Shown here piece by piece: positions 6,351-22,472 of a stretch of 64,000 nt of DNA. The stretch is from a virus (Duplodnaviria; Heunggongvirae; Uroviricota; Caudoviricetes): the IMG/VR virus record IMGVR_UViG_3300049014_000001, positions 24,956 to 88,955 of that record. One strand, written 5' to 3'. Both the position numbers and the translations under genes were made by a program. The notes below the pieces were generated by a model. The model made no database searches and was not told the DNA's origin. It was given only the letters and a program-made list of their open reading frames with translations. Positions within the stretch are counted from its first letter, which is position 1. Every line of letters starts with the position of its first letter.

Positions 6351-6413
6351 ATTGTATTTGCTAGCATACTAACCTACTAGCGGGTGTACCCATCACACTA
6401 CTGGGCCATAACT

Positions 6414-6490
6414 TGGCGCGATGTATCGGTTTCGAACCGATGACCCTCTGCTCGACAGGCAGGCGCTCTAACCATCTGAGCTAACACCGC
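6414..6490 (-). tRNA. tRNA-Asp (anticodon GTC)
   Basis: GCGGTGT TA GCTC-AGATGGTTA-GAGC, anticodon arm CCTGC-CTGTCGA-GCAGA, T-loop TTCGAAA, GCCA. Confidence 0.8.
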
Positions 6491-6498
6491 ATATATTC

Positions 6499-6574
6499 TG
6501 GCTGTGAGGGTAGGCTTCGAACCTACATCAACCTGATTAACAGTCAGGAGCTTTACCAATTAAGCTACTTCACA
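6499..6574 (-). tRNA. tRNA-Asn (anticodon GTT)
   Basis: D arm GCTT-AATTGGTA-AAGC, anticodon arm CCTGA-CTGTTAA-TCAGG, T-arm GTAGG-TTCGAAG-CCTAC, CCA. Confidence 0.75.
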
Positions 6575-6697
6575 ATTGTTCTGTACGGGCTTTGCACCAC
6601 ATTTGAGAGTTTCAGATTCATGCCACTCTTAACTTTGTTCCAGCTACCTCTTCCGTCCCACAGCGCAGGCTTACAGGTTGATTCTCTGGACGTGCTC

Positions 6698-6773
6698 TGG
6701 TTGCGAAGAGTGGGAGTCGAACCCACGACACGAAGGTTATGAGCCTCCTGTTCTACCGCTGAACTATCTCGCA
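6698..6773 (-). tRNA. tRNA-Met (anticodon CAT; elongator, Ile2 or initiator not resolved)
   Basis: D arm GTTC-AGCGGTA-GAAC, anticodon arm GGAGG-CTCATAA-CCTTC, T-arm GTGGG-TTCGACT-CCCAC, 3' GCAACCA; acceptor pairing slightly irregular by hand. Confidence 0.65.
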
Positions 6774-6779
6774 ATTGTT

Positions 6780-6854
6780 TGGCTCCCTGTGTTGGAATTG
6801 AACCAACGTTGTCCATCATTAGCCGGTTTGCGCACAAGTCCGGGTTAAACAGGA
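6780..6854 (-). tRNA. tRNA-like element, identity unresolved
   Basis: T-arm GTTGG-TTCAATT-CCAAC, CCA and acceptor-like ends present; the interior does not fold into standard D and anticodon arms. Confidence 0.3.
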
Positions 6855-6941
6855 AATTATTCGGCCCCTAGATTCTGTTTGTCGGCTCAAGGGTGGCCTC
6901 AGTGAGGGTAGATTAACTCACGCCGCTTCCGCGATTGCTCT

Positions 6942-7021
6942 TGGTGGAGAACATCGGATTCGAACCGATCTGATTAGCCTACTTGCAAGGCAGGTGTCCA
7001 CTCCCAGCAGACCCGATCCCC
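6942..7021 (-). tRNA. tRNA-Ala (anticodon TGC)
   Basis: GGGGATC GG GTCT-GCTGGGAGT-GGAC, anticodon arm CCTGC-CTTGCAA-GTAGG, T-arm ATCGG-TTCGAAT-CCGAT, ACCA. Confidence 0.7.
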
Positions 7022-7140
7022 AATATTTGTTACGTAGTGCTACTATACTACATGCTCAACGATTTGTCAAGCATTTTGAATTCTGGTCAGGGTAGGTGGC
7101 TCTGCCCCACCGTCCTCTCGCTTCCAAGGCGAGCCGTCTA

Positions 7141-7566
7141 CTAGGCTGACAATATACCCTGAGTATTTAGTCCTGCATACCAATTAAATTGTTCAGCAGT
7201 TCTCATAGCATGACAGTTTGCACAAAGCACCTGACATTTAGCTATCTCTTCTTTAATTTTCTTCAAAGCCAGTCCACGCATTTGTGAAACGTTTGCAGAC
7301 TTTGTACTACGATCTATGTGATCGAACTGAAGGCAAGGAACCCTAGCTTCTCCACATTCAACACATGGGTGTTCCAGCAGATAGTCATACACGTATTGCC
7401 AATTGGCTTTACGTAACTCTAATTGTTGATCGTATTTAATTTGCTTCTTTTCCTCGCTTCTGTTTGCGTGATACTTTCTATCATACTCCCGCTTGCAAGG
7501 TCTACATAGTTTAGATCTTTGTCCGTATGGCTCGTACGCCACTTGGCACGAGCTACACGTTCTCAT
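7141..7566 (-). CDS. HNH homing-type endonuclease
   Basis: 141 aa; paired Cys clusters CSSC...CRPC...CVEC and HNH core FDHIDR...N...LCANCH; immediately flanks the tRNA array. Confidence 0.8.
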   Translation of the reverse strand: MRTCSSCQVAYEPYGQRSKLCRPCKREYDRKYHANRSEEKKQIKYDQQLELRKANWQYVYDYLLEHPCVECGEARVPCLQFDHIDRSTKSANVSQMRGLALKKIKEEIAKCQVLCANCHAMRTAEQFNWYAGLNTQGILSA

Positions 7567-7582
7567 ACGCCCTCAAGTTGTT

Positions 7583-7669
7583 TGGTGCTGCCTGTGTGAT
7601 TCGAACACACGTTGGGATTTCTCCGCTGGGTTACAAAGCCAGTGCCTTCAACCTCTCAGCCAAAGCAGC
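7583..7669 (-). tRNA. Class II-scaffold tRNA with anticodon loop TTTGTAA (anticodon TGT, Thr-type)
   Basis: 87 nt; acceptor GCTGCTT/AGGCAGC, Ser-like D arm TG-GCT-GAGAGGTTGAA-GGC, anticodon stem CTGG/CCAG, long variable stem-loop GGA-GAAA-TCC, T-arm GTGTG-TTCGAAT-CACAC, A73, CCA. Confidence 0.5.
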
Positions 7670-7982: not shown

Positions 7983-8189
7983 TCAAACGCTACTTGTCAA
8001 GTTTTGTGCTTTCTTAGCTTCCTTCTTGTCCTTCTTCAGGATAACTCGGACTTGTCGAAGCTGTTCTGCGATGTCCGTACGACCATTTGCGGTGTAAGTG
8101 CGAATGGCGATGTACAGTGCCTGCCTTGACACTCCCTTAGCGCGCTCTACCGCTTCCTCTAAGGTAAGGTCTTTCCATCGTTGGGCCAT
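7983..8189 (-). CDS. Hypothetical small basic protein, possibly DNA-binding
   Basis: 68-aa ORF in track with a Lys-rich tail. Confidence 0.45.
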   Translation of the reverse strand: MAQRWKDLTLEEAVERAKGVSRQALYIAIRTYTANGRTDIAEQLRQVRVILKKDKKEAKKAQNLTSSV

Positions 8190-8531: not shown

Positions 8532-8820
8532 TGGGTACTCCGTGAAATACTTCGTATCATACACTACTTACCTAATTTTGTCAACTATACGCAACTGTCT
8601 TATATAACTAAGTAATATAACTATGTACACTTACTATATACTATAACATATAATTGTAATATACATAAGTAGTTTATTATTAAATTATCGATTGACTCTT
8701 CCCTTACGGGAGAGTCTTTTAATTTTATTGTTAACTATACCTTAAGTATTATATACTCCCTCACTCGCTGCGCTCGTTCGGTCGTAAGTATATAGCACTA
8801 ACTAGCTTTTGTCAAGTGTT

Positions 8821-8833
8821 GTGCCATTGGCAC
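8821..8833. promoter_or_regulatory. 13-bp palindrome GTGCC-ATT-GGCAC (same family as sites at 13.9-14.4 kb)
   Basis: Perfect inverted repeat just upstream of the 8849 promoter. Confidence 0.4.
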
Positions 8834-8848
8834 GTAAGTAGCTAGTAC

Positions 8849-8878
8849 TTGACAAATACATTGCTTCGCATGTACAAT
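8849..8878 (+). promoter_or_regulatory. Sigma70-like promoter TTGACA-18-TACAAT
   Basis: ttgacaaatacattgcttcgcatgtacaat upstream of the 8910 gene. Confidence 0.5.
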
Positions 8879-8909
8879 GATGTTTTCGTCAAATAAATAG
8901 GAGAGAACG

Positions 8910-9125
8910 TTGGCTAAGCAACAACTTAAAGAGGACATCGAAGAAGGTAGCAATAGCTACAACGTGTACTTCCGCGAAGATAGTGGACATCTTGGCCACA
9001 TCTATGCAGAGAACTACAAAGACCATAAGGAAGCAATCCTTTCTGTCAAGGAAACCCTTGTCGAAGAAGGTGATTGCCTTACAAACAAGGCGGTGCTTGC
9101 CGTCATCAATGGAGGTAAAACTTGA
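8910..9125 (+). CDS. Hypothetical protein (TTG start)
   Basis: Track ORF; RBS TAGGAGAG 6 nt upstream of TTG. Confidence 0.45.
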   Translation: MAKQQLKEDIEEGSNSYNVYFREDSGHLGHIYAENYKDHKEAILSVKETLVEEGDCLTNKAVLAVINGGKT

Positions 9126-9427
9126 AAACTGACTTTTTTGATATCACAGAAACCAATCTTGCAGAATTTGCAAAGAAACTGGAATCGCACCTGTTGGATG
9201 GCTGGGCCATCAGCAAACAGAATCCGGGCGATGTCATCGGACTGTATGGAGGTGTCTATACAATTTCTCTGTATCGCAACGATGAAACCATCAAACGTAT
9301 TCGCACTCGTGTAGCTGGGATTCAGGATGCTCCGAAGCTCGATAGGGCTACGATTCTCGCCAACGCTAGAGCGGCAAAGGCTGCTAAAGCGACAACAAAG
9401 GTTGATATTACGACAATTCGGGAATAA
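9122..9427 (+). CDS. Hypothetical protein (TTG start)
   Basis: Track ORF; RBS GGAGG precedes it; overlaps the previous stop. Confidence 0.45.
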   Translation: MKTDFFDITETNLAEFAKKLESHLLDGWAISKQNPGDVIGLYGGVYTISLYRNDETIKRIRTRVAGIQDAPKLDRATILANARAAKAAKATTKVDITTIRE

Positions 9428-9559
9428 AACAACGGTTTCGTAAAATAATCCTTGGTTTTCTGGCGGAAACATGTAATAGTGTTGTTCGTCGTGCAGGATT
9501 AACGGTTTTTAAACAAATTCTCACACATTATCACACTTGTTCGAAAGGAAATTGATCTA

Positions 9560-9934
9560 ATGGCAACTATGTCTATCCTCCGTCACGCTCTGGCACTGAA
9601 TGCCAAGGAAATCACCGCGATGCAAGCCTCTGTCGCACAATTCAAAGTGGAAGCCAAAGCTTGGCGTGAACAGGGAGAGCAAGCATATGCTGTAGCTGCA
9701 TCAAAAGACGTAGAAAAGCATCGTGCTAGCCTTTCCAAGCTGGTTACGATGCAACGTAAGATAAAAGCAGAGATACATGCTATCGAGCGCAATGAACGTA
9801 TCACTCGTAAGTACGCTATCGTGTTCGGTAAGGCACCTATCTTGCAATCGAAGACTAGCTACGAAATGGAATCGATGCTGGACACACTTCTCGCAGAAAA
9901 ACAAGCGGAAGCTGAAGTAGAAGCCGTGGCATAA
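9560..9934 (+). CDS. Hypothetical protein
   Basis: 124-aa ORF with RBS GAAAGGAAA. Confidence 0.5.
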   Translation: MATMSILRHALALNAKEITAMQASVAQFKVEAKAWREQGEQAYAVAASKDVEKHRASLSKLVTMQRKIKAEIHAIERNERITRKYAIVFGKAPILQSKTSYEMESMLDTLLAEKQAEAEVEAVA

Positions 9935-9942
9935 AAGCCACA

Positions 9943-9972
9943 AAGAAATGTGTTGACACGTCTAGGGTTTAT
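9943..9972 (+). promoter_or_regulatory. Promoter TTGACA-18-TGATAAT containing conserved spacer tctagggtttataca
   Basis: The same 15-mer spacer recurs at 13655-13670 behind another TTGAC box. Confidence 0.45.
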
Positions 9973-10011
9973 ACATGATAATTCCTTCATCAACCAACTG
10001 ACGGAGGAATT

Positions 10012-10716
10012 ATGAAAAAGCTCATCGGCTATGTACGTGTCTCCACCAAGGAGCAAGGCAAGACCAAGAACGGTTTGGAGGCTCAGGCCGAAGCCATCCG
10101 TCTGTTCGCACACTATAACGGCTACGAGCTGATTGACATCGCAGAAGAAGTGATGTCCGGTGCTGATGATAACCGTCCTGTCCTCGCAGAAGTGACACGT
10201 CGAGCTGCCAAACTGGGCGCATACGTGGTCGTCAACAAGCTGGATCGTCTGTCTCGTAATGCCCTGTTCATCCTGAAGTATATCGATCAGAATAGCAAGT
10301 TCATCGTGACCATGCTTGGGGATAACGTAGACCCGTTCATGCTCCACATCTACGCCGGTTTGGCGGAAAAGGAGCGCATGATGATCGCAGAACGCACCAA
10401 GGCAGCTCTGGCCGCTAAAAAGGCCCGTGGTGAAGCTCTGGGGGCGTCTGAAGCTGTGCTGGAGAAGGCAAGGGTCAGTGCTGGAGCTGCCGAAGCCACG
10501 AAGGCAGATGACTTTGCAGCCCGTTTGCGCCCGACTCTGACCCGCATGAAGAAAGATGGCATGACCCTGCGTGAAATGGCTCAGGAATTGAATGCCAGCG
10601 GCACGAAAACGGCTCGTGGTGGCGAATGGCATCCAACAATTTTTAAAAAGGTGGTTTTTCTCTTGGTTGATTGCGGGCTCCGCCCACGCCCCAGTTGGGG
10701 CTTTACAAAAACATAG
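10012..10716 (+). CDS. Small serine recombinase (resolvase/invertase family)
   Basis: N-terminal IGYVRVSTKEQ catalytic-serine motif, ...SGADDNRP..., LDRLSRN, C-terminal HTH; about 200-230 aa. Confidence 0.85.
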   Translation: MKKLIGYVRVSTKEQGKTKNGLEAQAEAIRLFAHYNGYELIDIAEEVMSGADDNRPVLAEVTRRAAKLGAYVVVNKLDRLSRNALFILKYIDQNSKFIVTMLGDNVDPFMLHIYAGLAEKERMMIAERTKAALAAKKARGEALGASEAVLEKARVSAGAAEATKADDFAARLRPTLTRMKKDGMTLREMAQELNASGTKTARGGEWHPTIFKKVVFLLVDCGLRPRPSWGFTKT

Positions 10717-10742
10717 CTAGTACTACTAACCAAGGAGAAAAT

Positions 10743-11339
10743 ATGACCCCTGCACAACGTTGCGCAAAAGTTTCCCAGAACATGGACAACATTGCCCTCA
10801 TCACCTTCGCCATTGGCTTCTGCAAAGCCGCCCACTTCGGCCAGAAACGTAAATGGTCGTTCGAACCTTATTGGACTCACCCTATGGCGGTGGCAAACAT
10901 CCTGCATGAACACGGCCACAATGACCCTCACATGCAAATTGTCGCCCTGCTGCACGATGTAGTAGAGGACACGCCTATCACTCTGGAAGAAATCACTGAG
11001 CACTTTGGCGAAAAGGTAGCTGAAGATGTCCACTGGCTCACGAAAGTGGACTACAGCAAGCACACAGACCCCTTCGGCATGCCCCTGAAACGCGCTGCGA
11101 AGAAATTCCTTGAGAACCTTCGTCTGAGCCGCGCTCCACAGCACGTCAAAACGATTAAGCTTGCCGACCGCTTGCACAACATGACCATTCTCACGGAAGA
11201 CCCGGCTTTTGCTCCGCTCTACGCAGAAGAGACTCGTGAGCTTCTTGACTACGCCTTGAAAGAAGGCTGTCCTGTCCTGTGGGCAAAGCTGGACAAAATT
11301 ATCAAGAATTTCCAAAATCCTATTGACAAGGCTATCTAA
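10743..11339 (+). CDS. HD-domain hydrolase of the RelA/SpoT (p)ppGpp-hydrolase type (small alarmone hydrolase-like)
   Basis: H...HD motif with ALLHDVVEDT signature; start re-set to MTPAQR after RBS AAGGAGAAA. Confidence 0.65.
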   Translation: MTPAQRCAKVSQNMDNIALITFAIGFCKAAHFGQKRKWSFEPYWTHPMAVANILHEHGHNDPHMQIVALLHDVVEDTPITLEEITEHFGEKVAEDVHWLTKVDYSKHTDPFGMPLKRAAKKFLENLRLSRAPQHVKTIKLADRLHNMTILTEDPAFAPLYAEETRELLDYALKEGCPVLWAKLDKIIKNFQNPIDKAI

Positions 11340-11381
11340 GTAGCGCTACTATACTGCCTACCAACTAACCAAGGAGAAGAA

Positions 11382-11558
11382 ATGAATACCATGCAACAAG
11401 AATTCGATGCGGTAGTCGCCCATTTGTACGCTCAAGGGAAGCGTGCAGCAGTACTAGGACGCTGCAAGTATAGGTCTGATGAAGGAACTATGTGTGCGGT
11501 AGGCTGTCGCATTCCTAATAACATGTATAACCCTGCCATGGAAGGGGCGACATCCTGA
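11382..11558 (+). CDS. Hypothetical small Cys-containing protein (58 aa)
   Basis: ORF below track threshold with canonical UTR CTAACCAAGGAGAAGAAATG. Confidence 0.35.
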   Translation: MNTMQQEFDAVVAHLYAQGKRAAVLGRCKYRSDEGTMCAVGCRIPNNMYNPAMEGATS

Positions 11559-11593
11559 CAACTGAAATCAAAGCACTTAGATAAGGAGAAACT

Positions 11594-11785
11594 ATGCAAC
11601 AGATTATTACCTTCCTTCGTAAAGCCAAGAACATGATTCTGGCCCTGCTGATGGGTCTTGCTGTCGTACTGGCGGTAAGCCTTCTTGTTTTCCTGTCGGC
11701 AGCTCTGAAGGGCATGCTCATTCCGCTGATGTTCTTCTGCGGTGGTGTGTACCTCTTCTACCACTGGCTAGAGGGACGACAATAA
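11594..11785 (+). CDS. Small membrane protein
   Basis: 63 aa, two hydrophobic helices, RBS TAAGGAGAAA. Confidence 0.5.
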   Translation: MQQIITFLRKAKNMILALLMGLAVVLAVSLLVFLSAALKGMLIPLMFFCGGVYLFYHWLEGRQ

Positions 11786-11787
11786 GC

Positions 11788-12063
11788 ATGAACGGCCTAC
11801 CTTACAAAGATACCTTCGCAGCTAAAGGTAGCCAGCTCTACGAAGCTATCACGGAAGGACGTGATGAAGATGCAAAGAAAATCTACGCAGATACGACAGC
11901 TCGTTACCATGCCCTGCTGAATGGACTGTCCGTTCCAAAAGTAGTCGTGTCCGAGAAGAATCCTAAAATCTGGGCTATCCTCGCTGACGATGCAGAATAC
12001 GACAAGCAAGGAAGGCTCGTTAAGAAACTAGAGAAAGGAGGGAATGTAGATGTCAAGGTATAA
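11788..12063 (+). CDS. Hypothetical protein
   Basis: Track ORF in tight same-strand array. Confidence 0.45.
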   Translation: MNGLPYKDTFAAKGSQLYEAITEGRDEDAKKIYADTTARYHALLNGLSVPKVVVSEKNPKIWAILADDAEYDKQGRLVKKLEKGGNVDVKV

Positions 12064-12355
12064 AATTGGACAAGAACTGGAAATCCATTCCCTCAAAGGC
12101 TTCGGGAACGCACAAGAGAACGGTAGACGTGTAAGAGTTGTAAAGCTCCCCGGCTTCCATCCTACTTATCAAAGTAACTACCTCGTTCGCTACGTCGATA
12201 ACTCAAGAGAACTAGTAGCACACCCAGACTACCTACGTCCACCTCCACCACCTTCAAATCGTGGAGACATGGACAAGGTGACAAGCTGGGAAGAGTTCGA
12301 ATCTGTCACTCGCATCCCTGCCGATGTCGTACGAGGAACGGACAGTGAACACTGA
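12050..12355 (+). CDS. Hypothetical protein
   Basis: Track ORF; RBS GGAGGGAATG upstream. Confidence 0.45.
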   Translation: MSRYKIGQELEIHSLKGFGNAQENGRRVRVVKLPGFHPTYQSNYLVRYVDNSRELVAHPDYLRPPPPPSNRGDMDKVTSWEEFESVTRIPADVVRGTDSEH

Positions 12356-12372
12356 GAAGGAAGAATACACCT

Positions 12373-12567
12373 ATGAAGCACACGATTTCTCCCTCCGGGT
12401 GGGCGGGAAGAAGTCAGGAAGAGTTGTATGCGCAACGTGTGGCCTTGTACCGTCCAACACTCCATTCACTTTATGGGCAGTACGAATGGGATGCAACAAC
12501 CGCTACCATCCTTCCTACCACAACAAACGTTATGAAACAACCAAACTTTTCTAAGGAGAAACAATGA
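12373..12567 (+). CDS. Hypothetical protein
   Basis: Preferred over the overlapping 12324 ORF because of RBS AAGGAAG. Confidence 0.4.
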   Translation: MKHTISPSGWAGRSQEELYAQRVALYRPTLHSLYGQYEWDATTATILPTTTNVMKQPNFSKEKQ

Positions 12568-12902
12568 GACTACTACTTCAATGTCGTCTTATCAAAACAG
12601 AAAGACGATTGACATTCGATATTCTTTGGCAGAATGACCATCCAGACATCACATGGAACGGAGATGACGATGGAAATTATCACAAATTCACAGCTAGCAA
12701 CGGCTACGAAGTGATTTCCCGTTCCCGAATGGATATCCAAACAGAACGCATCTGGCTACTAGGTGCCAAGCGTAATGAAGAATCCCGCTCAGGAACAATG
12801 GTGTTCTCCAGCAACGAGAAACGTGATGCTGCTTACTGGAACTTCGTCATCGCACTCAAAGAATGGGCCGATCATAACAACGGATTCATAAATATTTTCT
12901 AA
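12564..12902 (+). CDS. Hypothetical protein
   Basis: RBS TAAGGAGAAACA; overlaps the previous stop. Confidence 0.5.
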   Translation: MRLLLQCRLIKTERRLTFDILWQNDHPDITWNGDDDGNYHKFTASNGYEVISRSRMDIQTERIWLLGAKRNEESRSGTMVFSSNEKRDAAYWNFVIALKEWADHNNGFINIF

Positions 12903-12912
12903 GGAGAAACAA

Positions 12913-13245
12913 ATGTCAGAACTGTCACTACCTACCATCGTACGTCATAAAGACGGAAGCATTTTTGCTATGGTAGAAGGAACACTTGAAGACTGGGTGA
13001 GCCTTGTTGTCATTCACGATACAGAACTCAAGCGGAAACCGGGAGAAGGAACTAAGAACTGCTGGCACCAATCCTCCGTCATCGACTGGATTGAAGATGG
13101 CACCTACAACGTAATCCACGGAGGCATCACAAACAAGCTAGAACCAATTCGTATCGAAATCGACTCCAGCCCCGTATCAGCAGCATTGGCAGAAGTGAAA
13201 GAACTGGAAGCTACCCTCCTTCGCGTAAAGAGTATGCTGAAATGA
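12913..13245 (+). CDS. Hypothetical protein
   Basis: RBS TAAGGAGAAACAA; followed by a terminator. Confidence 0.5.
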   Translation: MSELSLPTIVRHKDGSIFAMVEGTLEDWVSLVVIHDTELKRKPGEGTKNCWHQSSVIDWIEDGTYNVIHGGITNKLEPIRIEIDSSPVSAALAEVKELEATLLRVKSMLK

Positions 13246-13251
13246 TATCAG

Positions 13252-13280
13252 AAGGCTCCCTCCGGGGAGCCTTTTTTATT
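13252..13280 (+). terminator. Intrinsic terminator
   Basis: aaggctccc-tccg-gggagcctt hairpin then TTTTTTATTT. Confidence 0.7.
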
Positions 13281-13281
13281 T

Positions 13282-14600
13282 GGGCTAAAATTTCCTAAGT
13301 ATTTGATTCTAAAAATATTTTTTGAAGTACACCCTTCCAACATATCTACAACACTTGTTAGAAAATTATCATACCTACATCCTGACGAAATAGGCAGAAC
13401 TTTTATGGGCCGGGACAATGGGCTAACACTGGATATGAGCGAGGGCTAGCGGATGGCAATCCATGTTTGGCTATGGGTCTAGCGGATGGCTTAATGCGTG
13501 GCGGTGTGGGCACGAGGATGGCTGGGGCCTTCCAAAAATATCATGGCTGCATTTGTTTGAGGTAGGTAAGGGGTAGACATACCCTTTGGCTAAAACGGCT
13601 CAAAACGCGTTTAAATCGATTCTAGCACCATGTGTATAAATCATTGACGTTCGTCTAGGGTTTATACAAGGTAGGATGATAGTTGCACTAGCCACATAGT
13701 GAATCAGCTAGGAACATGGATAGGAACGCATAGGAAGCCCTATGAGGCGTTATCTAGGAGTGGCTAAGGGGTTGGCATAGGTAGGGCTAAATAAACGTCC
13801 TGTAGGGCCTCTACGCTTGCCTGAGTTAGAATTGCAATAAAGCAATGATTAGTGCACTAAACGTTGCATTGGCAGCATTATATGTGCCTGTGGCACGCAT
13901 ATTAATAATAAGAAACAATGTTTCGCGTTCGCTTGCTTTGCAATCGCCCGCCCTCACTGTCCATACACATAGATATAGCCCTGTATATGTGCCACCGGCA
14001 CCCCCTATATATGGCCCTAGGGGCCTCCCTATACACCCCCTCCTACAGAGGGTAGCCCTGTATGTAGTCCCATAGGGACAGCCCATTGTTTTAGATAGTT
14101 TGCTAATACATAGTGCACTATTTAATCGTACTTGAATGATTAGCGTACTAAGTGTTGTTGACAAACAACGAAATGTATGATATGCTATGCGTCGGGGCAT
14201 GAGCGCAGCGAATGCCTAATATACAAGTATTATATAAATGTATATATTATATGTTATATAACTATGTATATATGTGCCTATGGCACGACAGTATGTTAGT
14301 CCCTCTGGGACAGCTAGATATGGTGGCTAACAGCCACGCTATAGCCCCTCTCTCGCCCTTAGTCGGTCGATCAATCGAGGGGTAGCTAGCAAGGGTGTGC
14401 CATAGGCACGTATATACGTTATGTGGCTGTTAGCCACCATATAGCCTAGTCGCTTTGCTGAAAGCGTTTATAGGCCCTAGGAAGCGTTAATACGTGAGTT
14501 GGAATAGGAATATGCCAGAATAGGCGAGGATAGCCCTGTAGGGCCATAGAATGAGAAAAGTCAGCCTTGTTTAAGGGCTGGCTTTGTTGTTTGTGACTTA
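13282..14600. promoter_or_regulatory. AT-rich non-coding island with multiple palindromic protein-binding-type sites and promoter-like elements
   Basis: No credible ORF. GTGCC-N3-GGCAC at 13883-13895, 14274-14286 and 14397-14409. GTGGCTAACAGCCAC at 14323 and its inverse GTGGCTGTTAGCCAC at 14423, exactly 100 bp apart. TTGACA-17-TATGCT at 14158. The tctagggtttataca box is at 13655. Confidence 0.5.
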
Positions 14601-14606
14601 CTTGTT

Positions 14607-15173
14607 TTAAGCTTCTTCTCTCAGCTTTTCAACCCGTGCGGATCGTGCTGGATGAGTGTTTGTAGCTGGCAAAGGCTTAAGCAAGGCTTTCAGGGCTTTA
14701 GCTGGATCAATGCCATATTTGCGCATAATCTTGCCTGCAAAGCTATCGGCTGCATATTCTTGGGAATGGTTCAATTCCCTGTCGCCTTCACCATTACGGG
14801 CAGCTTCACCGTATTTAGCTAGCAGGTCGCTGTCGCTTTCAAATTTAGCGCTAGCCGGTGCGAAGCTTTCCACATACTTGCGGCCATGTCCCATTACCGA
14901 ATGGCCGAATTCATGGGCAAGGGCAAAGAACAGAGCGTTATCGTCCAATTCCTTAGTGTCCCCGAGGTGGATAATGTCCGGCTGGCCGATAACCCATTCA
15001 ACAGAGGCAACACGTACCGAGTAATCAACTAGGTACGTCACTTTGTGACCTGTTTCCTTTTCCAGCGTAGCGGCATACTCGCAAATACGCTTGTCCACCA
15101 TGTTGCAGGCATTCGCCGAAGCCAGCGAGAGGAAAGCGACGATTGCCAGCGAGAATTTAGCGAATGCTTCCAT
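14607..15173 (-). CDS. Secreted zinc metallopeptidase (HExxH; M48/M56-like)
   Basis: N-terminal signal peptide MEAFAKFSLAIVAFLSLASANA; HEFGHSVMGH motif. Confidence 0.7.
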   Translation of the reverse strand: MEAFAKFSLAIVAFLSLASANACNMVDKRICEYAATLEKETGHKVTYLVDYSVRVASVEWVIGQPDIIHLGDTKELDDNALFFALAHEFGHSVMGHGRKYVESFAPASAKFESDSDLLAKYGEAARNGEGDRELNHSQEYAADSFAGKIMRKYGIDPAKALKALLKPLPATNTHPARSARVEKLREEA

Positions 15174-15291: not shown

Positions 15292-15909
15292 TTAGACCGT
15301 AAAATGTTTGATGATGCTCATATTGTCCATCGACAGAAATTCGTCAACAGTGAGAATTTCTTGTTTAATGTCTTCCGCATAGCCTTCGCGGAAGTAAGGG
15401 GCATCTTTGTAATTGATGCTCAAACGGATAGTAACTTGTGGAACATTTTTGTTATTCCAGTAGTCAGAATGATTGAAGCCTTCCACAAACATTTGAAGCT
15501 GCAACACTGCACCGTCGCTGAACCATTCGTTTTCATAGTCCCAATATTTTTCCTTTTCCTCTTGGGACATAGAATCATAGTCAAATGATTCTAGCTTATT
15601 GTCATGCACGTACATTTGTTGGCAAGTCTCCATTTGGCTATTAGCATTATCAGTTTGCTTTTCGGTGAAATGATAGGAGCTATCGCAATCATTGCGATAC
15701 ATCCTAGAGACACTATAGCCACCGTCCTGCTTAGGAATCCAGCCGGATACATAATTCCCCTCAATTTCGTCTGTCCGTGTGTCTGTAAGGCTATCATAGC
15801 CCTTATGCCCGGTTACAAGAGTGCTTTCCCATTCGTTTTCGGCAAGGTTAGCCAATGCTGCCAGTTTGGTTTGAATTGCAGCCGGTACAGTAGATTTAAA
15901 GTGTTTCAT
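15292..15909 (-). CDS. Hypothetical protein
   Basis: 205-aa track ORF in minus-strand array. Confidence 0.5.
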   Translation of the reverse strand: MKHFKSTVPAAIQTKLAALANLAENEWESTLVTGHKGYDSLTDTRTDEIEGNYVSGWIPKQDGGYSVSRMYRNDCDSSYHFTEKQTDNANSQMETCQQMYVHDNKLESFDYDSMSQEEKEKYWDYENEWFSDGAVLQLQMFVEGFNHSDYWNNKNVPQVTIRLSINYKDAPYFREGYAEDIKQEILTVDEFLSMDNMSIIKHFTV

Positions 15910-15978
15910 TTTAAAGATTCCTTTCGTGTGTTAGAACATATGTAAATGGACATTAATAAATGCCCATTGGCCTAGGCT

Positions 15979-16311
15979 CTAGCTTCCGTCCATTAAGTCT
16001 TGCTCATCATTCCCATAAGCCGACTCGATTTTCAGGCCGGTATGAGCACAAAACAGGCTTTCATCCTCCCAGTTAATCTCCATTGCAACGATATTCCAAT
16101 CGTCATGCAAGCAATCAACCTTGCCGCCAGAGTCAACGAAGCGATTGCAGCTAATGATTGCATCCCGGATCAAACCGGCATTCTCTTTTGCTGCTGCAAA
16201 GCTAATTGCCTCCCCATCCTGCGCGATGAAATAAAACGGATAGCCTCCCGGCCATGCATAAGGCCCAATGTCCAATGCTTTGTTAAAGTCAAATACTGTT
16301 TTGATGTTCAT
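15979..16311 (-). CDS. Hypothetical protein
   Basis: 110-aa track ORF. Confidence 0.5.
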   Translation of the reverse strand: MNIKTVFDFNKALDIGPYAWPGGYPFYFIAQDGEAISFAAAKENAGLIRDAIISCNRFVDSGGKVDCLHDDWNIVAMEINWEDESLFCAHTGLKIESAYGNDEQDLMDGS

Positions 16312-16312
16312 G

Positions 16313-16522
16313 TTAATTTCCTCGCAGTTTCATTGCTACAGCCTGCAATGCAATATGATCCATGCTGTATTGATTGCCATTGCGGTAGCGGCGCAATACG
16401 GCTTTATCGTCCATATCAAGCCAGCTAATCTTTTCCGCCTCTTCCAATGCATCCATGTGAAAACTGAGGCCCAAAGCGATGTTATCCAGCTTTTTGATTA
16501 ATGCTTTACGTTCACGTTTCAT
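16313..16522 (-). CDS. Hypothetical protein
   Basis: 69-aa track ORF abutting its neighbours. Confidence 0.4.
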   Translation of the reverse strand: MKRERKALIKKLDNIALGLSFHMDALEEAEKISWLDMDDKAVLRRYRNGNQYSMDHIALQAVAMKLRGN

Positions 16523-17136
16523 ACAATATTCCCTTCAATGTCGAATTCATATTCATTAATTTGAAGGCTCTCGATTACCTGTTCGTCCGAAGTGAGATAG
16601 TCTTGCTCATCTTCTAGGCGCTTATAAATCCAGTCGGCAAAATCACGCATGGATTGAGTAATTTCATCTTCCGCGTCTCCGATATCCCGATACATGCTAT
16701 CAGTATTATGAACGTCAACAGACATACAGCCGGAATGGTAATAATGCCCGCGATGTTTCATTGTACAGGCCAGCTTGTAGAAGTTTCGGCGTTGCGTAGT
16801 TTGCAATTCCTTTGCAATACGCTGCAATTCAATATCTTGCGGAAACTCTTTTGAAATGGCCTGTACAGAGCCTTTAGCGTAGCTGTAAGAGCCTTCAAAA
16901 CATGCCCCGTTCCCTTGTGACCAAAAGCCGTTAAAGTAGATTGTAGGCATGTTTCCGCGTTTAGAATCCAGCAGGATACCTAACAGCACGGCAGCAGCTT
17001 CTGCCTGAATATAAACGCCTTCAAACCAGCTACTATCCGAACAGGCCACGTTTTGTTTATACCAGTCGCGGGCCTTTTCTTTTGCTTTGTCGTTCAATTC
17101 GTCATACTGGAAAACATCTTTGGAAATGGTACGCAT
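16519..17136 (-). CDS. Hypothetical protein
   Basis: 205-aa track ORF. Confidence 0.5.
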   Translation of the reverse strand: MRTISKDVFQYDELNDKAKEKARDWYKQNVACSDSSWFEGVYIQAEAAAVLLGILLDSKRGNMPTIYFNGFWSQGNGACFEGSYSYAKGSVQAISKEFPQDIELQRIAKELQTTQRRNFYKLACTMKHRGHYYHSGCMSVDVHNTDSMYRDIGDAEDEITQSMRDFADWIYKRLEDEQDYLTSDEQVIESLQINEYEFDIEGNIV

Positions 17137-17210
17137 AATAAAATCCTTTCGTGTGAATTCTGTTGTTAAACAATTCCGACAATGCCCACTATTACATGGG
17201 CATTAGCTGA

Positions 17211-17420
17211 CTAGCTTAACCTATGGCTAGGCCATACATGCTTAGTAGGCTTTCCGTCGATTCTAACGACAGTAACCCAGACATATTTAACGCCATGTAC
17301 GTTTGTATTTTCTACATGCTCATAACTGTAGATTTTAGCTATGTATCCGTTATCCCCTCTGTCCGGGGGACATTGGACAATCTTGCCGCATTTCAATTCA
17401 GAGATTTTCATTACAGCCAC
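17211..17420 (-). CDS. Hypothetical protein
   Basis: 69-aa track ORF. Confidence 0.4.
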   Translation of the reverse strand: MAVMKISELKCGKIVQCPPDRGDNGYIAKIYSYEHVENTNVHGVKYVWVTVVRIDGKPTKHVWPSHRLS

Positions 17421-17824
17421 TCCCTTGTGAGTGCATCTCCGTCCCCTTCAAACAAGGAATAGGACAGAGAGTAAACAGTATGGAATCCCATGTCCATTCC
17501 GCATCCGCTTACTTTCAAATACCCGTTATCGTCCGTCCCCCATTGCAGGATGTTATCCGCTAAGCCTGTAATGCCTTCAATATGTCCATTATGGACAATA
17601 AACAGAGACATTTTACGGGACATACCGGACTTGGCAACACTGCGAACGGTGCAGTAAATCTTGCTACCCTTTTGGATCATTTCACGCAAGCGCTTAATGC
17701 TGGCATTTCGCAGTTCCAATTTGCCCTTTTCTTGGCTCAATTGTTCACAGTCTTTGTGATATTCCGGCTTAGTAGTTTTAAAAACAGTACCGTCAACAGT
17801 TTTCAGGTAAGTGTATTTAGACAT
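17411..17824 (-). CDS. Hypothetical protein
   Basis: 137-aa track ORF. Confidence 0.5.
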   Translation of the reverse strand: MSKYTYLKTVDGTVFKTTKPEYHKDCEQLSQEKGKLELRNASIKRLREMIQKGSKIYCTVRSVAKSGMSRKMSLFIVHNGHIEGITGLADNILQWGTDDNGYLKVSGCGMDMGFHTVYSLSYSLFEGDGDALTREWL

Positions 17825-17827
17825 GGC

Positions 17828-18145
17828 TTAATTTCCTTTCAGTTTAAATTCAATGTACGTCACTGGTTGAAATTCAATCCCGTAACGCGTCAAAAACGCA
17901 CCATAGGCGCTTGCAAGCGTTTGGAAGGCGTTAGCATCATCCGACAAGCCTAGAAGCTCTAAACGCTTGTCTATGGCCTTTTCGTAGCACTCTGCGAAGT
18001 ATTCCGGGTTAGCGCCTATGTCCGTGCTGTAGGACGTGCCCATTTCGTTTTTACCAGTGATTCGCAGAACGTAGCTGTTAGCGTTTTGCTTGTGCTTTCG
18101 GAATGTGATTCCGATAGGGCTACCGTCATTATGTAGCAGTTTCAT
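17828..18145 (-). CDS. Hypothetical protein
   Basis: 105-aa track ORF. Confidence 0.5.
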   Translation of the reverse strand: MKLLHNDGSPIGITFRKHKQNANSYVLRITGKNEMGTSYSTDIGANPEYFAECYEKAIDKRLELLGLSDDANAFQTLASAYGAFLTRYGIEFQPVTYIEFKLKGN

Positions 18146-18357
18146 ATTATCCCCTCAAATAGCCGCACAGAGCCGCGACAAGCGTAGCAGCTACAATTAC
18201 AGCAATGTCCCCGGCCAAAGTCGTTTCATAGTTATTCGGGTGCAGTTGGCGAGGTGTAAACAGTTTTGCTCTCAATTTCTGTACTTTAGTACGAATCATT
18301 TGTCTCTCACTTTTGGAGTTAGTCCGTGTATGCCCTCACACAAAGGGCATAAGCTGA

Positions 18358-18546
18358 TTAACTAAAATCTACATCTTTGCTAGTTTTCATACACAAAGAG
18401 CATGAAATGCTGTAGCCCTCTGATTTGGGGAACACCGTTTTAAAATGCTTTACAATTTCTTTTGCGGAATCTTTATGCAAAATGCTACGTTCAGCAGTAG
18501 CAAAGTAATGTTTCCCGTTCTTTGCAACGTTAATTTCATAGAACAT
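18358..18546 (-). CDS. Hypothetical protein
   Basis: 62-aa track ORF. Confidence 0.4.
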   Translation of the reverse strand: MFYEINVAKNGKHYFATAERSILHKDSAKEIVKHFKTVFPKSEGYSISCSLCMKTSKDVDFS

Positions 18547-18665
18547 TTTATTGCCCCTTGATTGCTTGTTTAATTGCTTTGTAAGCCAAGTACGCTTGAT
18601 AGCGTGCGGCCTGATTTTGTGGCGTTACGACATAAGGCATTGTTTAGGCCCTTTCGTTTGATTAG

Positions 18666-18968
18666 TTATTTCTTTTTAAGTTGTCCATTCGATTTAAGGC
18701 GCTTTACCTCTTGCAAGGCAATGATAAGCGAATCAAGGGCATCATCAGAAACATTGATAGTGTCGCCCATGCGAGATGTAATAACCGTAGGCAAATAATC
18801 AAGTGCTAACACTGTAGCAGAATTTAATGCGTCGCCTTTAACGTTAGCGCCTACAGCGTAGATAATTTCCAGCACAGCGCTAGCGGATTCCGTCCTGTTC
18901 ACATATTTTTGGATAGGCATGTTAAACCCCACAGAGAATGAACAAAGCCGATTCGACAGACCATTCAC
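18666..18968 (-). CDS. Hypothetical protein
   Basis: 100-aa track ORF. Confidence 0.45.
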   Translation of the reverse strand: MNGLSNRLCSFSVGFNMPIQKYVNRTESASAVLEIIYAVGANVKGDALNSATVLALDYLPTVITSRMGDTINVSDDALDSLIIALQEVKRLKSNGQLKKK

Positions 18969-19141
18969 GCTTTTTCAAATACAAGGCAGCAACTTTAATA
19001 CCCAGTGTGCGTTTAATGATTCGTGCCCGTTCGATATGAGACACGTTATTTTTCAATTGAATCTTTGCCATGATGTACCCTTTCAAATAAAACATTGCAT
19101 GTAATAACGCACGTTTGATAATGCGTTATGGCCTGAAATGT

Positions 19142-19360
19142 TCAGTCTTTTTCTTTACCGTCAATGATTGTGCAAACCGTGGATTCCGATACATACCAGT
19201 CGCCCATGCCGAAAGCTACAGTAAAGCCACTACCAGAGCGCATAACCCACGCGTTAATGTGGATTGCACATCCTTTGTACTCTTCTGTAAGGCTTTTCTC
19301 TTTTGCCTTAGCTAGAATATTGTCGTAGTCCGGGCCGGAATAAGTGAGAGGGCGATTCAT
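19142..19360 (-). CDS. Hypothetical protein (start re-set to MNRPLTY after GGGGGTGAAA RBS)
   Basis: Track ORF with a better internal start. Confidence 0.45.
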   Translation of the reverse strand: MNRPLTYSGPDYDNILAKAKEKSLTEEYKGCAIHINAWVMRSGSGFTVAFGMGDWYVSESTVCTIIDGKEKD

Positions 19361-19871
19361 TATTTCACCCCCGCGATAAAGGCTTGCATCCATTCAAGCA
19401 TTGCTTGATCGTTAGTTTCAAATTCGATAATCATATTTTCACCTATTGGTGTTGGTTGACAAAATCGAATGACCTATTTCTAAGTCACTCTGTTTTACCA
19501 ACTTGCTAGAGACATTCCCATGTGTCTAGCGTGGTGCGCTGTATTCTCATGTCGTCCCGACATTAGCAGCGCCGAATAATTAGATTGTTAAAGAACTGAC
19601 TTCTTGGCTTTGGCTCTTTTCGCTTTAGCTTCATCTCTCTGGCATCCACCTTTAAGACTCTGCACACTCTAAGAACTACTTGCCTACTTCACCGCAACAG
19701 CGTTTTGTGCTGCGATGTAGGTATATTAGGGCATTCAAAGGGGATATGCAATACCCTTTTCAAATTATTTTTGATACGTTGCGTTTTGTTCCTTCCACGC
19801 TAGCTATAAAGAAATTGCGCACGTGCATACACGCACGCGTAGCAAGTAGCGTGCCAGCACTACATAGCTAC

Positions 19872-20664
19872 TTATCCACAGAATCCACCTAAGTTATACA
19901 CATGCCTCTAGAATCGATTATAAAGGCCCCCGTTTCAACGCAAGGCGTTAGCTAGCTCTCGCTATCAATCAAAGCTTGCGCGTCTCCTAGGCCCCTTAAA
20001 ACGCGTTTAAATGGCATGTGGATAACCACAAAAAGCTGTGGATAAGTAGCGTTTTATGTAAATCCGTCTCTTGAGACATGCAAATTTACATGGCTTGACA
20101 TATAAGTCTTACAGATTATCCGGCAAGGAAAGCGGCAGAGAATTTGCAGAAAATACCTAAATATTCAATGGAATCAACAACTTAAGTCTTCTACAAGAGT
20201 GGCAACAGGTCTTCTATAAGACACAAGACAACTCTTATATAAGACATAGGACTACTCTTGTATATGAGTGACATAAAAGCAACTTTCTAAGTCTTATATA
20301 AGAGTTGCTAGCTAATGGGTAGTTGCCTGTTAGGGAGCTAGGGTAGGCAGGGAGGTAAGCAAAGCAAGGGTATGCCTAATAAGCCTAGTTTCCACCGTTC
20401 GGGCTTGTTAGCATGGTAAGAACAGAAAAGCGTATGTATGCATAGCTGGCATACGTATTGCTTTATACGCTGCTGGCATGGCTTTTGCTATGTAACAATT
20501 GCTCTCATACTTGTACGTATAGCAACGATGTACAGGCATACAGCATTGTTGTATCCAGAGCAAAAAATGTGGATAACATGTCTTCGGGGTAATTTTCGAC
20601 AAAGTTGTCCACAAGGCAGGCCCAAAATCCGTCTAAAACGTTAGTTGTCCACAGCTTATCCACA
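19872..20664. promoter_or_regulatory. Cluster of DnaA boxes (TTATCCACA-type) in a non-coding region
   Basis: Perfect 9-mers at 19872-19880 (+), 20018-20026 (-), 20038-20046 (-), 20568-20576 (-) and 20656-20664 (+); 8/9 matches TTGTCCACA at 20605 and 20645. Confidence 0.65.
20187..20305. repeat. Five iteron-like 13-bp palindromic repeats, four of them phased at exactly 23 bp
   Basis: tcttctacaagag (20187), tcttctataagac (20210), tcttatataagac (20233), tcttgtatatgag (20256), tcttatataagag (20293); consensus TCTTnTAtAAGAs. Confidence 0.7.
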
Positions 20665-20919
20665 GAAACGTTGCGTTTATGCAACTGTGGTGCTAAAGCG
20701 ACAACTACCCCGGATTTCCAGCACCGGACAAGCCTAAGTTGACGCTAAGAAAGAACCTCAAAATTCCCCAGTCCTCGGGCAAATTCCGCCTTTCATTTTC
20801 AAAGTGAAAATCGAAAACGACTTTTGGAGCGTTTAAATTCCTACGGTGGACATTCTCCCCTAAAAAGAAAAACCACGCTCTTTGGCGTGGTTCTGAAGCG
20901 TTCTAGGGCTATTATTTTG

Positions 20920-21321
20920 TCAGACGTATTTCTCAGGCTCAAATGCTTCCATCAGGCCATTGAAATTGTCCGGGTCGCCGTCGCTGTAGGAATAATCGGC
21001 AACCACTTCTGAGCCATCATCGGCATTACCCAGAACGATGAAAATGTAATGCTCTTTGAATCCCTCTTTCCGTACCCATACACTTGATTCGTCCAAGTTG
21101 AAAATCAGCTCCATTGCGTCAGTGATTTGACTGGTTTCGGAGTAGGTCTTTTCCATTGTCTCTCCGTCCCATACGCCAGAAATGCGGAAGCCATTCTTCA
21201 CAAGCATTTCAAGCAAGGCGAACACAACCCGGCGTTCATTCTTGGCACGAATGTGCATTGGTTCATCCTTGTACAGGATAGCGTCGATCTTCAAATCAGG
21301 GACAGCGATAACTTGATGCAT
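20920..21321 (-). CDS. Hypothetical protein
   Basis: 133-aa track ORF. Confidence 0.5.
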   Translation of the reverse strand: MHQVIAVPDLKIDAILYKDEPMHIRAKNERRVVFALLEMLVKNGFRISGVWDGETMEKTYSETSQITDAMELIFNLDESSVWVRKEGFKEHYIFIVLGNADDGSEVVADYSYSDGDPDNFNGLMEAFEPEKYV

Positions 21322-21333
21322 GTTATTTTCCTT

Positions 21334-21648
21334 TCAGTGTGTTGGAGCGTCATAAATCAACCATACTTCACCTTTTACAGCTTCACCCTTACGGGAGACG
21401 AGATTACATCCTATTGGCGCTCCAGCGTGTAATAGAGCCAATGAAGCGTATTCATCCTGATTCCGGCTGAAGCCTATCTTCTGCCTGCGCCTACTCTGGT
21501 ACAGCATTGGAGCTGCGAATAACGGGCCTTCACCCTCTACAGGGCCATCCGTGCCATACACTGTGTGAGCTGCTGTAGGGTTGCCCTTGTCATCCTGTGC
21601 AAAATGTTCCATCAGGATAACATAGTGCTTATATTGCCTAGCCACCAT
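21334..21648 (-). CDS. Hypothetical protein
   Basis: 104-aa track ORF. Confidence 0.5.
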   Translation of the reverse strand: MVARQYKHYVILMEHFAQDDKGNPTAAHTVYGTDGPVEGEGPLFAAPMLYQSRRRQKIGFSRNQDEYASLALLHAGAPIGCNLVSRKGEAVKGEVWLIYDAPTH

Positions 21649-21740
21649 GATAGTCTCCTAGTTGCTGGAACATAAAATTCTAGGCCAAAAATTAACGGCC
21701 CACAAGAGGCCGTTGTATTTAAAATATCACAGGTGAAATA

Positions 21741-22469: not shown

Positions 22470-22472
22470 GTC

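Follow-up and report, generated by a model that had tools for sequence, protein, structure and literature searches.

Gene Organization at the Convergent Junction

The stretch of DNA analyzed in this work (hereinafter, the window) spans 64,000 nucleotides of a tailed phage (Caudoviricetes; IMG/VR record IMGVR_UViG_3300049014_000001, positions 24,956 to 88,955), and its subject is a gene-free region, here called island A (13246-14606), which embeds an array of short GC-rich palindromes. The phage is virulent; the source contig measures 89 kb, and the genome, of about 90 kb, carries 16 tRNA genes together with those coding for a family-A DNA polymerase, a Toprim/AAA primase-helicase, a ligase, and a ribonucleotide reductase. 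Judging from its PolA (47-51% identity) and TerL (42% identity), which have their counterparts in Aeromonas/Pseudomonas myophages of the Pakpunavirus type, the phage is distantly related to the Pakpunavirus/Vandenendeviridae group.

Island A is bordered on both sides by convergent operons, each closed by a terminator (Table 1). The left terminator is kept in L002 and L003, and the right one is almost identical in L002, L003, L008, and L033 (the L numbers designate the contigs used for comparison). The last gene of the leftward operon (19393->14607) codes for an M48-peptidase-like protein. A previous inspection of the letters alone (hereinafter, the sequence-only reading) had described positions 13282-14600 as lacking any credible open reading frame (ORF); the stretch is indeed ORF-poor, and its true extent is the one between the two terminators. 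The longest ORFs of island A encode 124 aa (minus strand) and 76 aa (plus strand); the two closest relatives show weak similarity to them, broken across frames and present on both strands, and the more distant relatives show none, the genuine neighboring proteins being detected there at 40-71% identity. A protein-coding reading of the island was consequently dropped, since the ORFs are not kept as proteins. Of the two places where operons converge in this genome, island A alone has a large gap devoid of genes; at the other, the gap is of only 55 nt.

Distribution and Conservation of Island A

Probing 50,697 deposited phage genomes with island A (megablast and blastn) did not retrieve any match. 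Homologous islands were found in nine further metagenomic genomes, that is, L002, L003, and L008, retrieved through homologs of the M48-like protein, and L033-L038, retrieved through the neighboring serine recombinase (contigs of 46-92 kb, four of them of 89-92 kb). The palindromes pointed out by the sequence-only reading are kept in position in these nine genomes, clearly contrary to what that reading had named as a ground for its refutation. The succession of rightward operon, terminator, island, terminator, and leftward operon is alike in the genomes examined for layout (the window, L002, L003, L008, and L033), and the identity of the island among the window, L002, L003, and L008 is 54-68%, with long invariant blocks. 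The content of the flanking genes varies: the M48-like gene abuts the island in the window and lies 4 kb off in L002. The serine recombinase, an unusual protein in a virulent phage, is 67-77% identical in every clade genome fetched through it. On the whole, the comparison of the sequences supports the idea that island A is a conserved cis-acting region.

The Palindrome Array

The palindrome GTGCC-N3-GGCAC (GTGCCNNNGGCAC) matches the window five times, far above the 0.07 occurrences expected by chance, and none of 100 shuffled sequences reached five. Four copies lie in island A (13884, 13989, 14274, and 14397), one more than first counted, and the fifth is at 8821. The palindromes named by the sequence-only reading are part of a broader class, N3-CC-N3-GG-N3' (usually CC-WWW-GG), which also includes GGCCCTAGGGGCC, GTCCCATAGGGAC, and GTCCCTCTGGGAC; seven of the nine perfect CC-N3-GG 13-mers of the window are in island A and one is at 8821. 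Moreover, GC-rich 5-N3-5 palindromes, whose background density is about 0.4 per kb, number nine within 13884-14436. Inside the clusters, the sites are spaced by 23-28 bp, and the whole array comprises from nine elements (window) to about 16 (relatives).

The second palindrome previously noticed, GTGGC-N5-GCCAC, does occur with its inverse exactly 100 bp apart (14323 and 14423), and each forms the core of one arm of a perfect inverted repeat of 20 nt (14318-14337 and 14423-14442). Long-range pairing of the 20/21-nt inverted repeats (this one, and 14266-14286 with 14397-14417) was rejected, as their arms are interleaved rather than nested and the inversion is lost in L002; therefore, only the local palindromes matter.

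The comparison of homologous palindrome positions in L002, L003, and L008 revealed arms that are altered but still complementary. For instance, a site that is GTGCC/GGCAC in three genomes is GGGCC/GGCCC in the remaining one, and a second site carries, genome by genome, GGCCC, GTCCC, GCCCC, and GCCCC. To quantify this aspect, we collected every CCWWWGG of island A from nine genomes, ignoring symmetry in the selection, and obtained 105 sites; these rows represent both paralogous and orthologous copies and hence non-independent events, the signal being nevertheless very large. Counting outward from the CC and GG, the first flanking pair is of the Watson-Crick type in 99 of the 105 sites, and the second in 99 as well, against 31 expected from the composition of the columns, with no G·T in either pair. 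All four pair types are represented at the second position (GC 40, TA 32, CG 18, and AT 9). The third pair is Watson-Crick in 77 sites, with as many G·T as A·C combinations, and the fourth in only 13, below the 31 expected, so that pairing stops at this position. The covariation score is 0.400, versus 0.137 ± 0.016 in shuffles (none of 500 reaching it), and it collapses once the partner column is slid.

The elements are also oriented. About a third of the perfect ones have strict asymmetric flanks, 5'-TA-[N3-CC-AT(T/A)-GG-N3']-A-3', on either strand, and the class of the flanks agrees with that of the loop in 26 of the 28 strictly classified sites (16 + 10, with 1 + 1 in disagreement). The centre triplets TAA and TTA are found in none of the 105 sites; CCA is preferred to CCT as a half-site, and CCT never occupies both halves. 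In L033, where 14 sites display eight different outer triplets, the ten sites upstream of the internal promoter described below have all the same orientation, and those downstream are mixed. In the right cluster of the window, the orientation flips across the central element CCCCTCTCTCGCCCTTAGTCGGTCGATCAATCGAGGGG; this cluster (14274-14442), folded as single-stranded DNA, gives z = -6.2 relative to shuffles.

These data point to elements acting as DNA hairpins or cruciforms, rather than as an ordinary operator or as RNA. Stems differ within one genome and yet their arms match, which fits arm pairing and does not fit a dimer reading the sequence; accordingly, no half-site consensus valid for a whole genome was found in the array, only CC-WWW-GG being common to the sites and the outer three positions varying between them. 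DNA hairpins would be preferred to RNA ones because wobble pairs are absent and because most sites lie upstream of the only conserved promoter, behind a terminator.

A scan of IMG/VR for a three-hairpin pattern retrieved mainly members of the same clade, and the other arrays checked (L046 and L054) turned out to be coding tandem repeats. A further conserved site of the hairpin type, GCGCCATAGGCGC, lies in the leftward operon about 3.3 kb to the right of island A and recurs in four relatives (L002, L003, L008, and L033).

The outlying copy at 8821 had been described as lying beside an early promoter. More precisely, two early sigma-70 promoters stand back to back here, and the copy sits between their -35 boxes; one promoter is on the minus strand (TTGACA at 8815-8810, a spacer of 17, TATACT) and the other on the plus strand (TTGACA at 8850, a spacer of 18, TACAAT). 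The same arrangement is repeated in L033, with its copy, TCGCCATTGGCGA, at 8803, and a regulatory role thus stays open. A promoter-proximal copy was found in two of the six genomes examined. Since a TTG codon at 8910 opens the rightward operon, the longer minus-strand ORFs at 8798-9472 are probably spurious.

The Core Module and the Internal Promoter

The core module of island A contains the 22-mer CTCAAAACGCGTTTAAATCGAT (13599-13620), made of the overlapping palindromes AAACGCGTTT, TTTAAA, and ATCGAT and invariant in four aligned genomes. The exact 22-mer was also found in 11 further viral or metagenomic contigs (L014, L015, and L016-L024). L015 is the same contig as L008; in the other ten, the flanks are 37-45% identical, i.e., unalignable. 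L025 (7001-7039) was considered together with these contigs. In the more distant contigs examined, the 22-mer is close to DnaA boxes, and in L023 it is beside terminase genes; it is absent from the GTDB genomes, which were searched for a clue to the host. Island A itself has a single DnaA-type box, which belongs to the core module, the A+T tract being 580 bp away. The adjacent ATAGG-rich block is highly conserved; CATAGG is 15-fold over-represented, with 21 occurrences on the plus strand versus 9 on the minus strand.

In Limnohabitans phage DC31, a cultured phage, the genes follow the same general arrangement and the core is present in a degenerate form, but neither the hairpin array nor a homolog of the recombinase is found. 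Hence, the array is specific to the ~90-kb clade, and the core is not tied to the recombinase. The left half of the core resembles a hix half-site, and the possibility that the core is the crossover site of the serine recombinase, in a Cre/lox-like cyclization, was considered; it was set aside, though not disproved for the clade, because of the situation in DC31 and because the odd centre of the 13-bp dyads is ill-suited to serine recombinases.

Two promoters had been proposed within the island by the sequence-only reading. The one at 14158 proved to be a good sigma-70 promoter, whose -35, spacing, and -10 are kept in the window, L002, L003, L008, and L033. The hairpin that follows it, GGGCAT/ATGCCC, is fully compensated, reading CCGTAC/GTACGG in L003 and CCGTAT/ATACGG in L033, and the G·U of the window copy fits only an RNA of the plus strand. 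A short transcription unit formed by this promoter (P14158) and its covarying hairpin is plausible, as the sequence-only reading had supposed when it spoke of candidate RNA units; a role of the array itself as RNA is unlikely, given the lack of wobble pairs and the position of most hairpins upstream. The islands of L034, L035, L037, and L038 do not contain TTGACAA (the -35 hexamer extended by one base), though the hairpin array is still present in them. The second proposed promoter, the tctagggtttataca box at 13655, belongs to a conserved block, but its upstream TTGACG is 13 nt away and unconserved. It was therefore rejected, and so were the minus-strand promoters overlapping the hairpins, which are not conserved either.

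Table 1. Position of the features of island A, island B, and the surrounding early region in the window.
Feature	Position	Strand	Description
tRNA gene cluster	1106-7669	-	Fifteen genes; an HNH endonuclease gene (7141-7566) among them
Candidate HTH-like gene	7983-8189		68-aa product
Outlying hairpin element GTGCCATTGGCAC	8821-8833		Flanked by the -35 boxes of back-to-back early sigma-70 promoters
Serine recombinase gene	10012-10716	+	234 aa; resolvase/invertase type
Intrinsic terminator	13250-13275	+	11-bp stem and T run; closes the rightward early operon (8910-13245) and borders island A on the left
Three 15-nt direct repeats GGGCTAGCGGATGGC	13443-13522	+	Spacing of ~33 nt; at least one copy kept in L002 and L003
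Core module	13562-13668	+	GGGGTAG, then AAAACGGCTCAAAACGCGTTTAAATCGATTCTAG, then the DnaA-type box, then ACGTTCGTCTAG..TTATACA; invariant columns in a four-genome alignment
DnaA-type box TGTGTATAA	13631-13639	-	TTATACACA on the minus strand
ATAGG-rich block	13700-13815	+	GCATAGGAAGCCCTA..GGCATAGGTAGGGC..AAACGTCCTGTAGGGCC; near-invariant run in four genomes
Left hairpin cluster	13884-14079		GTGCCTGTGGCAC (13884), GTGCCACCGGCAC (13989), GGCCCTAGGGGCC (14013), GTCCCATAGGGAC (14067)
Sigma-70 promoter and hairpin with a 6-bp stem	14158-14216	+	TTGACA-17-TATGCT at 14158-14186, then GGGCAT..ATGCCT where the 5' end of a transcript is predicted
Near-pure A+T stretch, 55 bp	14218-14272		Directly 3' of the promoter hairpin; AT-rich in the window, L002, and L008
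Right hairpin cluster, first part	14274-14442		GTGCCTATGGCAC (14274), GTCCCTCTGGGAC (14299), GTGGCTAACAGCCAC (14323)
Right hairpin cluster, rest	14274-14442		Central long palindromic CCCCTCTCTCGCCCTTAGTCGGTCGATCAATCGAGGGG (~14346-14383), GTGCCATAGGCAC (14397), GTGGCTGTTAGCCAC (14423)
Bidirectional terminator AAAGTCAGCCTTGTTTAAGGGCTGGCTTT	14557-14585		Ends the leftward operon (19393->14607); right border of island A
M48-peptidase-like gene	14607-15173	-	Last gene of the leftward operon
205-aa protein gene	16519-17136	-	PHROG 5162
Further hairpin-type site	17898-17910		GCACCATAGGCGC in the window
Island B, non-coding	19400-20920		All five exact TTATCCACA DnaA boxes of the window and two near-boxes TTGTCCACA
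Iterons of island B TCTTATATAAGA	20184-20303		Five, with a spacing of 23 bp
tRNA-Arg gene	45225-45301		Isolated, in the replication module

Island B and the Neighboring Genes

A second non-coding region, island B, likely represents a replication origin or an element similar to the injection stop signal (iss) of T5. In addition to its DnaA boxes, which are kept in L002 and L003, and to its iterons, it carries a split and rearranged copy of the core (19894-19919 and 19995-20012). In L019, L022, and Limnohabitans phage DC31, the iteron, the DnaA boxes, and the core are immediate neighbors.

Two genes placed between the islands have noteworthy relatives elsewhere, as follows. The M48-peptidase-like protein has 65%-identical homologs in T5-like contigs (L004-L007), where its gene is the first one after a gene-free gap of 1.4 kb adjoining the small terminase gene and precedes putative homologs of T5 pre-early genes, with Pfam matches to T5 A2 (weak) and to the T5 dNMPase, as well as a 583-aa ORF; the gap carries TTATCAACA boxes and the motif CGCGTTTAAAC. 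The 205-aa protein has homologs in giant Caulobacter phages (CcrBL9, CcrSC, and others), which lie inside the annotated long terminal repeats, in two copies per record.

As for the rest of the early region, two Logan contigs (SRR35217228) end at window positions 3819 and 10685; the tRNA/early region between them is unassembled in that dataset, possibly due to strain variation or repeats. L003 encodes, at 2402-2755, a ProQ/FinO-C-like protein adjoining the DNA ligase gene, a possible phage RNA-binding protein.

Possible Roles of Island A

The sequence-only reading had left three options for the island, that is, a regulator-binding array, non-coding RNA units, and a cis element for packaging or replication. 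Among these, packaging is the best supported, by analogy, and a classical array of operators for a helix-turn-helix (HTH) dimer does not fit. We favor, with a confidence no greater than evenly balanced, the interpretation of island A as a collapsed direct terminal repeat (DTR), i.e., a genome-end cis region, which in this clade has been equipped with a hairpin array. This proposal is made because island A matches the mapped or predicted ends of related phages in size, position, and style, and because two genes of the neighboring block (those for the 205-aa and the M48-like proteins) have homologs in terminal or first-injected DNA elsewhere.

The ends of several related phages are available for this comparison. 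In PaP1, a terminal redundancy of 1190 bp was mapped by run-off sequencing; in its record, blocks of small genes converge on the repeat from either side, and the gene-poor stretch that holds it has about 2 kb occupied only by doubtful small ORFs and one insert, with recurring GATAGC..GCTATC palindromes. Phage Adele has a DTR of 1165 bp, and vB_PseuGesM_254 one of 628 bp according to PhageTerm; the ends of the latter record are non-coding for 838 and 885 nt, and the flanking genes read towards them. In PAK_P3, the predicted genome terminus is a gene-free gap of 0.9 kb (62817-63739), where gp113 is the one predicted gene that is not transcribed; the gap is full of short GC-rich palindromes, differing from one another, and of direct repeats. 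Moreover, the Hi-C analysis of PAK_P3 suggested gene-free sequences as the anchors of a structure formed by an unknown DNA-structuring factor.

Island A and these Vandenendeviridae-type termini have in common a gene-poor island of about 0.9-2.3 kb within a block of small early genes, with dense short palindromes and direct repeats, and the terminase and DNA polymerase of the window phage are related to those of myophages of this type, the identity of TerL with that of PAK_P1, Otagovirus-like, and similar phages being low (42%). A gene-poor island of ~0.6-2 kb with small early genes reading inward was found both in the window and in its relatives. The flanking genes are convergent in island A, PaP1, and vB_PseuGesM_254, whereas they are co-directional in PAK_P3. 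Reading the sequences of PaP1, vB_PseuGesM_254, and PAK_P3 revealed no counterpart of the 22-nt core, of the sigma-70 promoter inside the island, or of the uniform N3-CC-WWW-GG-N3' element.

If island A is a genome end, it would hold the sites for the processing of concatemers, for packaging, and for the handling of incoming DNA ends. The hairpin elements would be extruded as DNA hairpins or cruciforms and recognized by a structure-specific phage factor, and the internal promoter would fire a short, hairpin-capped transcript into the 55-bp AT tract, which may help to open the region.

Several points weigh against this interpretation. No contig end or read-level sign of a terminus was found in island A, through which every assembly runs; this is uninformative, because a collapsed repeat would be assembled in just this way. 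The end of contig L036, which falls within a coding sequence some 300 nt short of the island, is equally uninformative on termini. The flanking genes have no tblastn match in the ends of vB_PseuGesM_254 or in DC31, and blastn of the island was empty, so the link to PaP1, vB_PseuGesM_254, and PAK_P3 rests on position and style rather than on sequence. In PaP1, the repeat follows the replication/nucleotide-metabolism arm, whereas island A is placed between the tRNA/early arm and another early block. Furthermore, an origin of replication could equally be made of a core with a DnaA box and of a promoter with an AT tract, the position of the 8821 copy, between divergent promoters, is suggestive of transcription control, and no protein binding the hairpins was identified.

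A more specific and tentative proposal, to which we give about one chance in four, concerns the elements themselves. The N3-CC-AT(T/A)-GG-N3' units may be previously undescribed, structure-specific DNA signals, i.e., hairpins read on one strand, working either as promoters or initiation signals similar to those of N4 or RSF1010 or as genome-folding anchors of the kind suggested by the Hi-C "hairpin" of PAK_P3. Together with the core and DnaA-box module, they would make up a control cassette for genome ends and DNA entry, shared across Pakpunavirus-like and possibly T5-like phages.

According to a second scenario, which we consider unlikely, a phage DNA-binding protein (the candidate 68-aa HTH-like product, for instance) binds the 13-bp dyads and controls the divergent early promoters at 8821, the island being a high-capacity sink or a nucleation site, comparable to operator arrays and plasmid centromeres, or else an anchor for chromosome folding. 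The location of the 8821 copy and of its L033 counterpart between back-to-back promoters speaks for this scenario, as do the 23-28 bp spacing, which resembles that of cooperative operator arrays, the dimer-like preference for CCA over CCT half-sites, the presence in the leftward early operon of a gene for the candidate HTH-like peptide, and the PAK_P3 Hi-C data, with gene-free sequences as anchors for a DNA-binding factor. Nevertheless, the outer three stem positions vary between sites and yet the arms match, something that a protein reading the duplex would not require, and the promoter-proximal copy is limited to two of six genomes.

Slightly less probable still is a replication origin, in which the RNA started at 14158 would invade the 55-bp AT tract as an R-loop, the hairpins would load the T7-gp4-like primase-helicase or act as single-strand initiation signals, and the core with its DnaA box would recruit the host DnaA. 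Initiation from R-loops operates at the primary origin of T7 and at oriF and oriG of T4. The order of promoter, hairpin, and AT tract, the flip of hairpin orientation across the central element, the DnaA-type box adjoining the core, the core placed directly beside DnaA boxes and iterons in DC31, L019, and L022, and the Toprim/AAA primase-helicase encoded by the phage are all in line with an origin. On the other hand, the true cluster of DnaA boxes and iterons is in island B, 6 kb away, which is a stronger candidate; TTGACAA is missing from the island in four genomes (L034, L035, L037, and L038) despite the array; most hairpins lie upstream of the promoter and hence off the strand that would be displaced; and a convergent, terminator-to-terminator junction is an unusual site for an origin.

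The least likely reading of the array, and a very improbable one, is a structured RNA, with numerous triloop hairpins of 5 bp that would capture an RNA-binding protein of the host or of the phage. In its favor are the conserved promoter and its fully covarying 5' hairpin (with a G·U fitting the plus-strand RNA only), the bidirectional terminator ~390 nt downstream, the strong predicted folding (z = -6.2, though obtained with DNA parameters), and the small RNAs known in PAK_P3. Against it, no Rfam family was matched at gathering score (only sub-threshold, terminator-like matches, E = 0.1-0.2), the stems do not tolerate wobble (no G·T at pairs 1-2, and G·T equal to A·C at pair 3), the sole conserved promoter lies downstream of most hairpins, which come after a terminator, both orientations of the element are found, and GGA is not enriched. 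The latter count (18 observed versus ~19 expected) led us to reject a sponge RNA for CsrA/RsmA.

These readings are not mutually exclusive, and a single protein specific for the hairpin structure could act on the end region as well as on the early promoters. The gene-free, palindrome-rich ends of phages (the injection stop of T5, the repeats of Pakpunavirus, and the Hi-C anchors of PAK_P3) have been known for decades without a mechanism. Here, more than 100 copies of one small oriented element show that selection keeps the pairing of the arms and not their sequence; a vague "repeat region" thus becomes a defined and mutable DNA signal, with a stem, a loop, and flanks, which may bear on packaging, end protection, early transcription, or genome folding. 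The exact 22-nt core in otherwise unalignable phages is another way into a function that many phages of freshwater and soil would share. Moreover, several Pakpunavirus relatives are in therapeutic use, and cis-acting end signals matter for engineering them.

Comparison with Known Systems

The repetitive extragenic palindromes (REPs) of bacteria and the bacterial interspersed mosaic elements (BIMEs) that they form are clustered, hairpin-forming palindromes of alternating orientation, with short conserved flanks and compensating changes, typically located between convergent genes. Island A resembles them in having hairpin clusters between convergent genes and a pairing kept by compensating changes. 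However, REPs are 20-40 nt long, share their sequence within a genome, and are scattered genome-wide, whereas the elements described here are 13-17 nt long, have varied stems, and do not extend beyond a single island. An incomplete search for a RAYT/HUH gene did not retrieve any.

The early promoters of the N4 virion RNA polymerase are DNA hairpins with a stem of 5-7 bp and a loop of 3 nt, extruded from supercoiled DNA. The elements described here share with them the 5-bp GC-rich stem, the 3-nt loop, a free stem sequence in which pairing is kept, the orientation, and the conserved flanks, as well as the vicinity to a presumed genome end and to an early promoter region. They differ in the loop, which is A-T-(T/A), with a central pyrimidine instead of the central purine of N4, and in number and arrangement (9-16 copies in both orientations versus three co-oriented copies). 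No phage RNA polymerase, of the giant virion type or other, was found among the proteins examined, the genome having been searched in part.

The untranslated Repeat Regions 1-3 of the T5 left terminal repeat (the "injection stop signal" region) are 0.2-1.2 kb long, RR3 being the largest (1.2 kb); they contain nested repeats, inverted repeats, palindromes, and DnaA boxes, are conserved above the level of the neighboring ORFs, and have an unknown mechanism, and one of them spans the boundary of the terminal repeat (Davison bioRxiv 10.1101/866236). As in T5, two repeat regions, islands A and B, bracket a block of early genes, and the M48-like gene beside island A adjoins A2/dNMPase-like genes in the T5-like contigs. 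In contrast, the T5 palindromes are not of the CC-WWW-GG type, and the terminase of the window phage is of the Pakpunavirus type. No Pfam match to T5 A1, A2, or dNMPase (dmp) was obtained in the ten neighboring ORFs scanned (15292-24499), and the paired DnaA/DnaA* boxes of T5, arranged as IRD'-spacer-IRC' with a 52-bp spacer, were not seen in island A (one box) or island B (seven boxes). Homology of the core with Repeat Region 3 was also discarded, since shuffled controls gave alignment scores just as high; what island A shares with T5 is its architecture only.

On the whole, island A is real, strongly conserved, and far from what chance would produce, and in kind it is an ordinary non-coding region of the phage end type. 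What is unusual is that one uniform DNA hairpin element is present in so many copies, whose compensatory evolution is clear, and that a core linked to DnaA boxes and conserved at great depth accompanies it.

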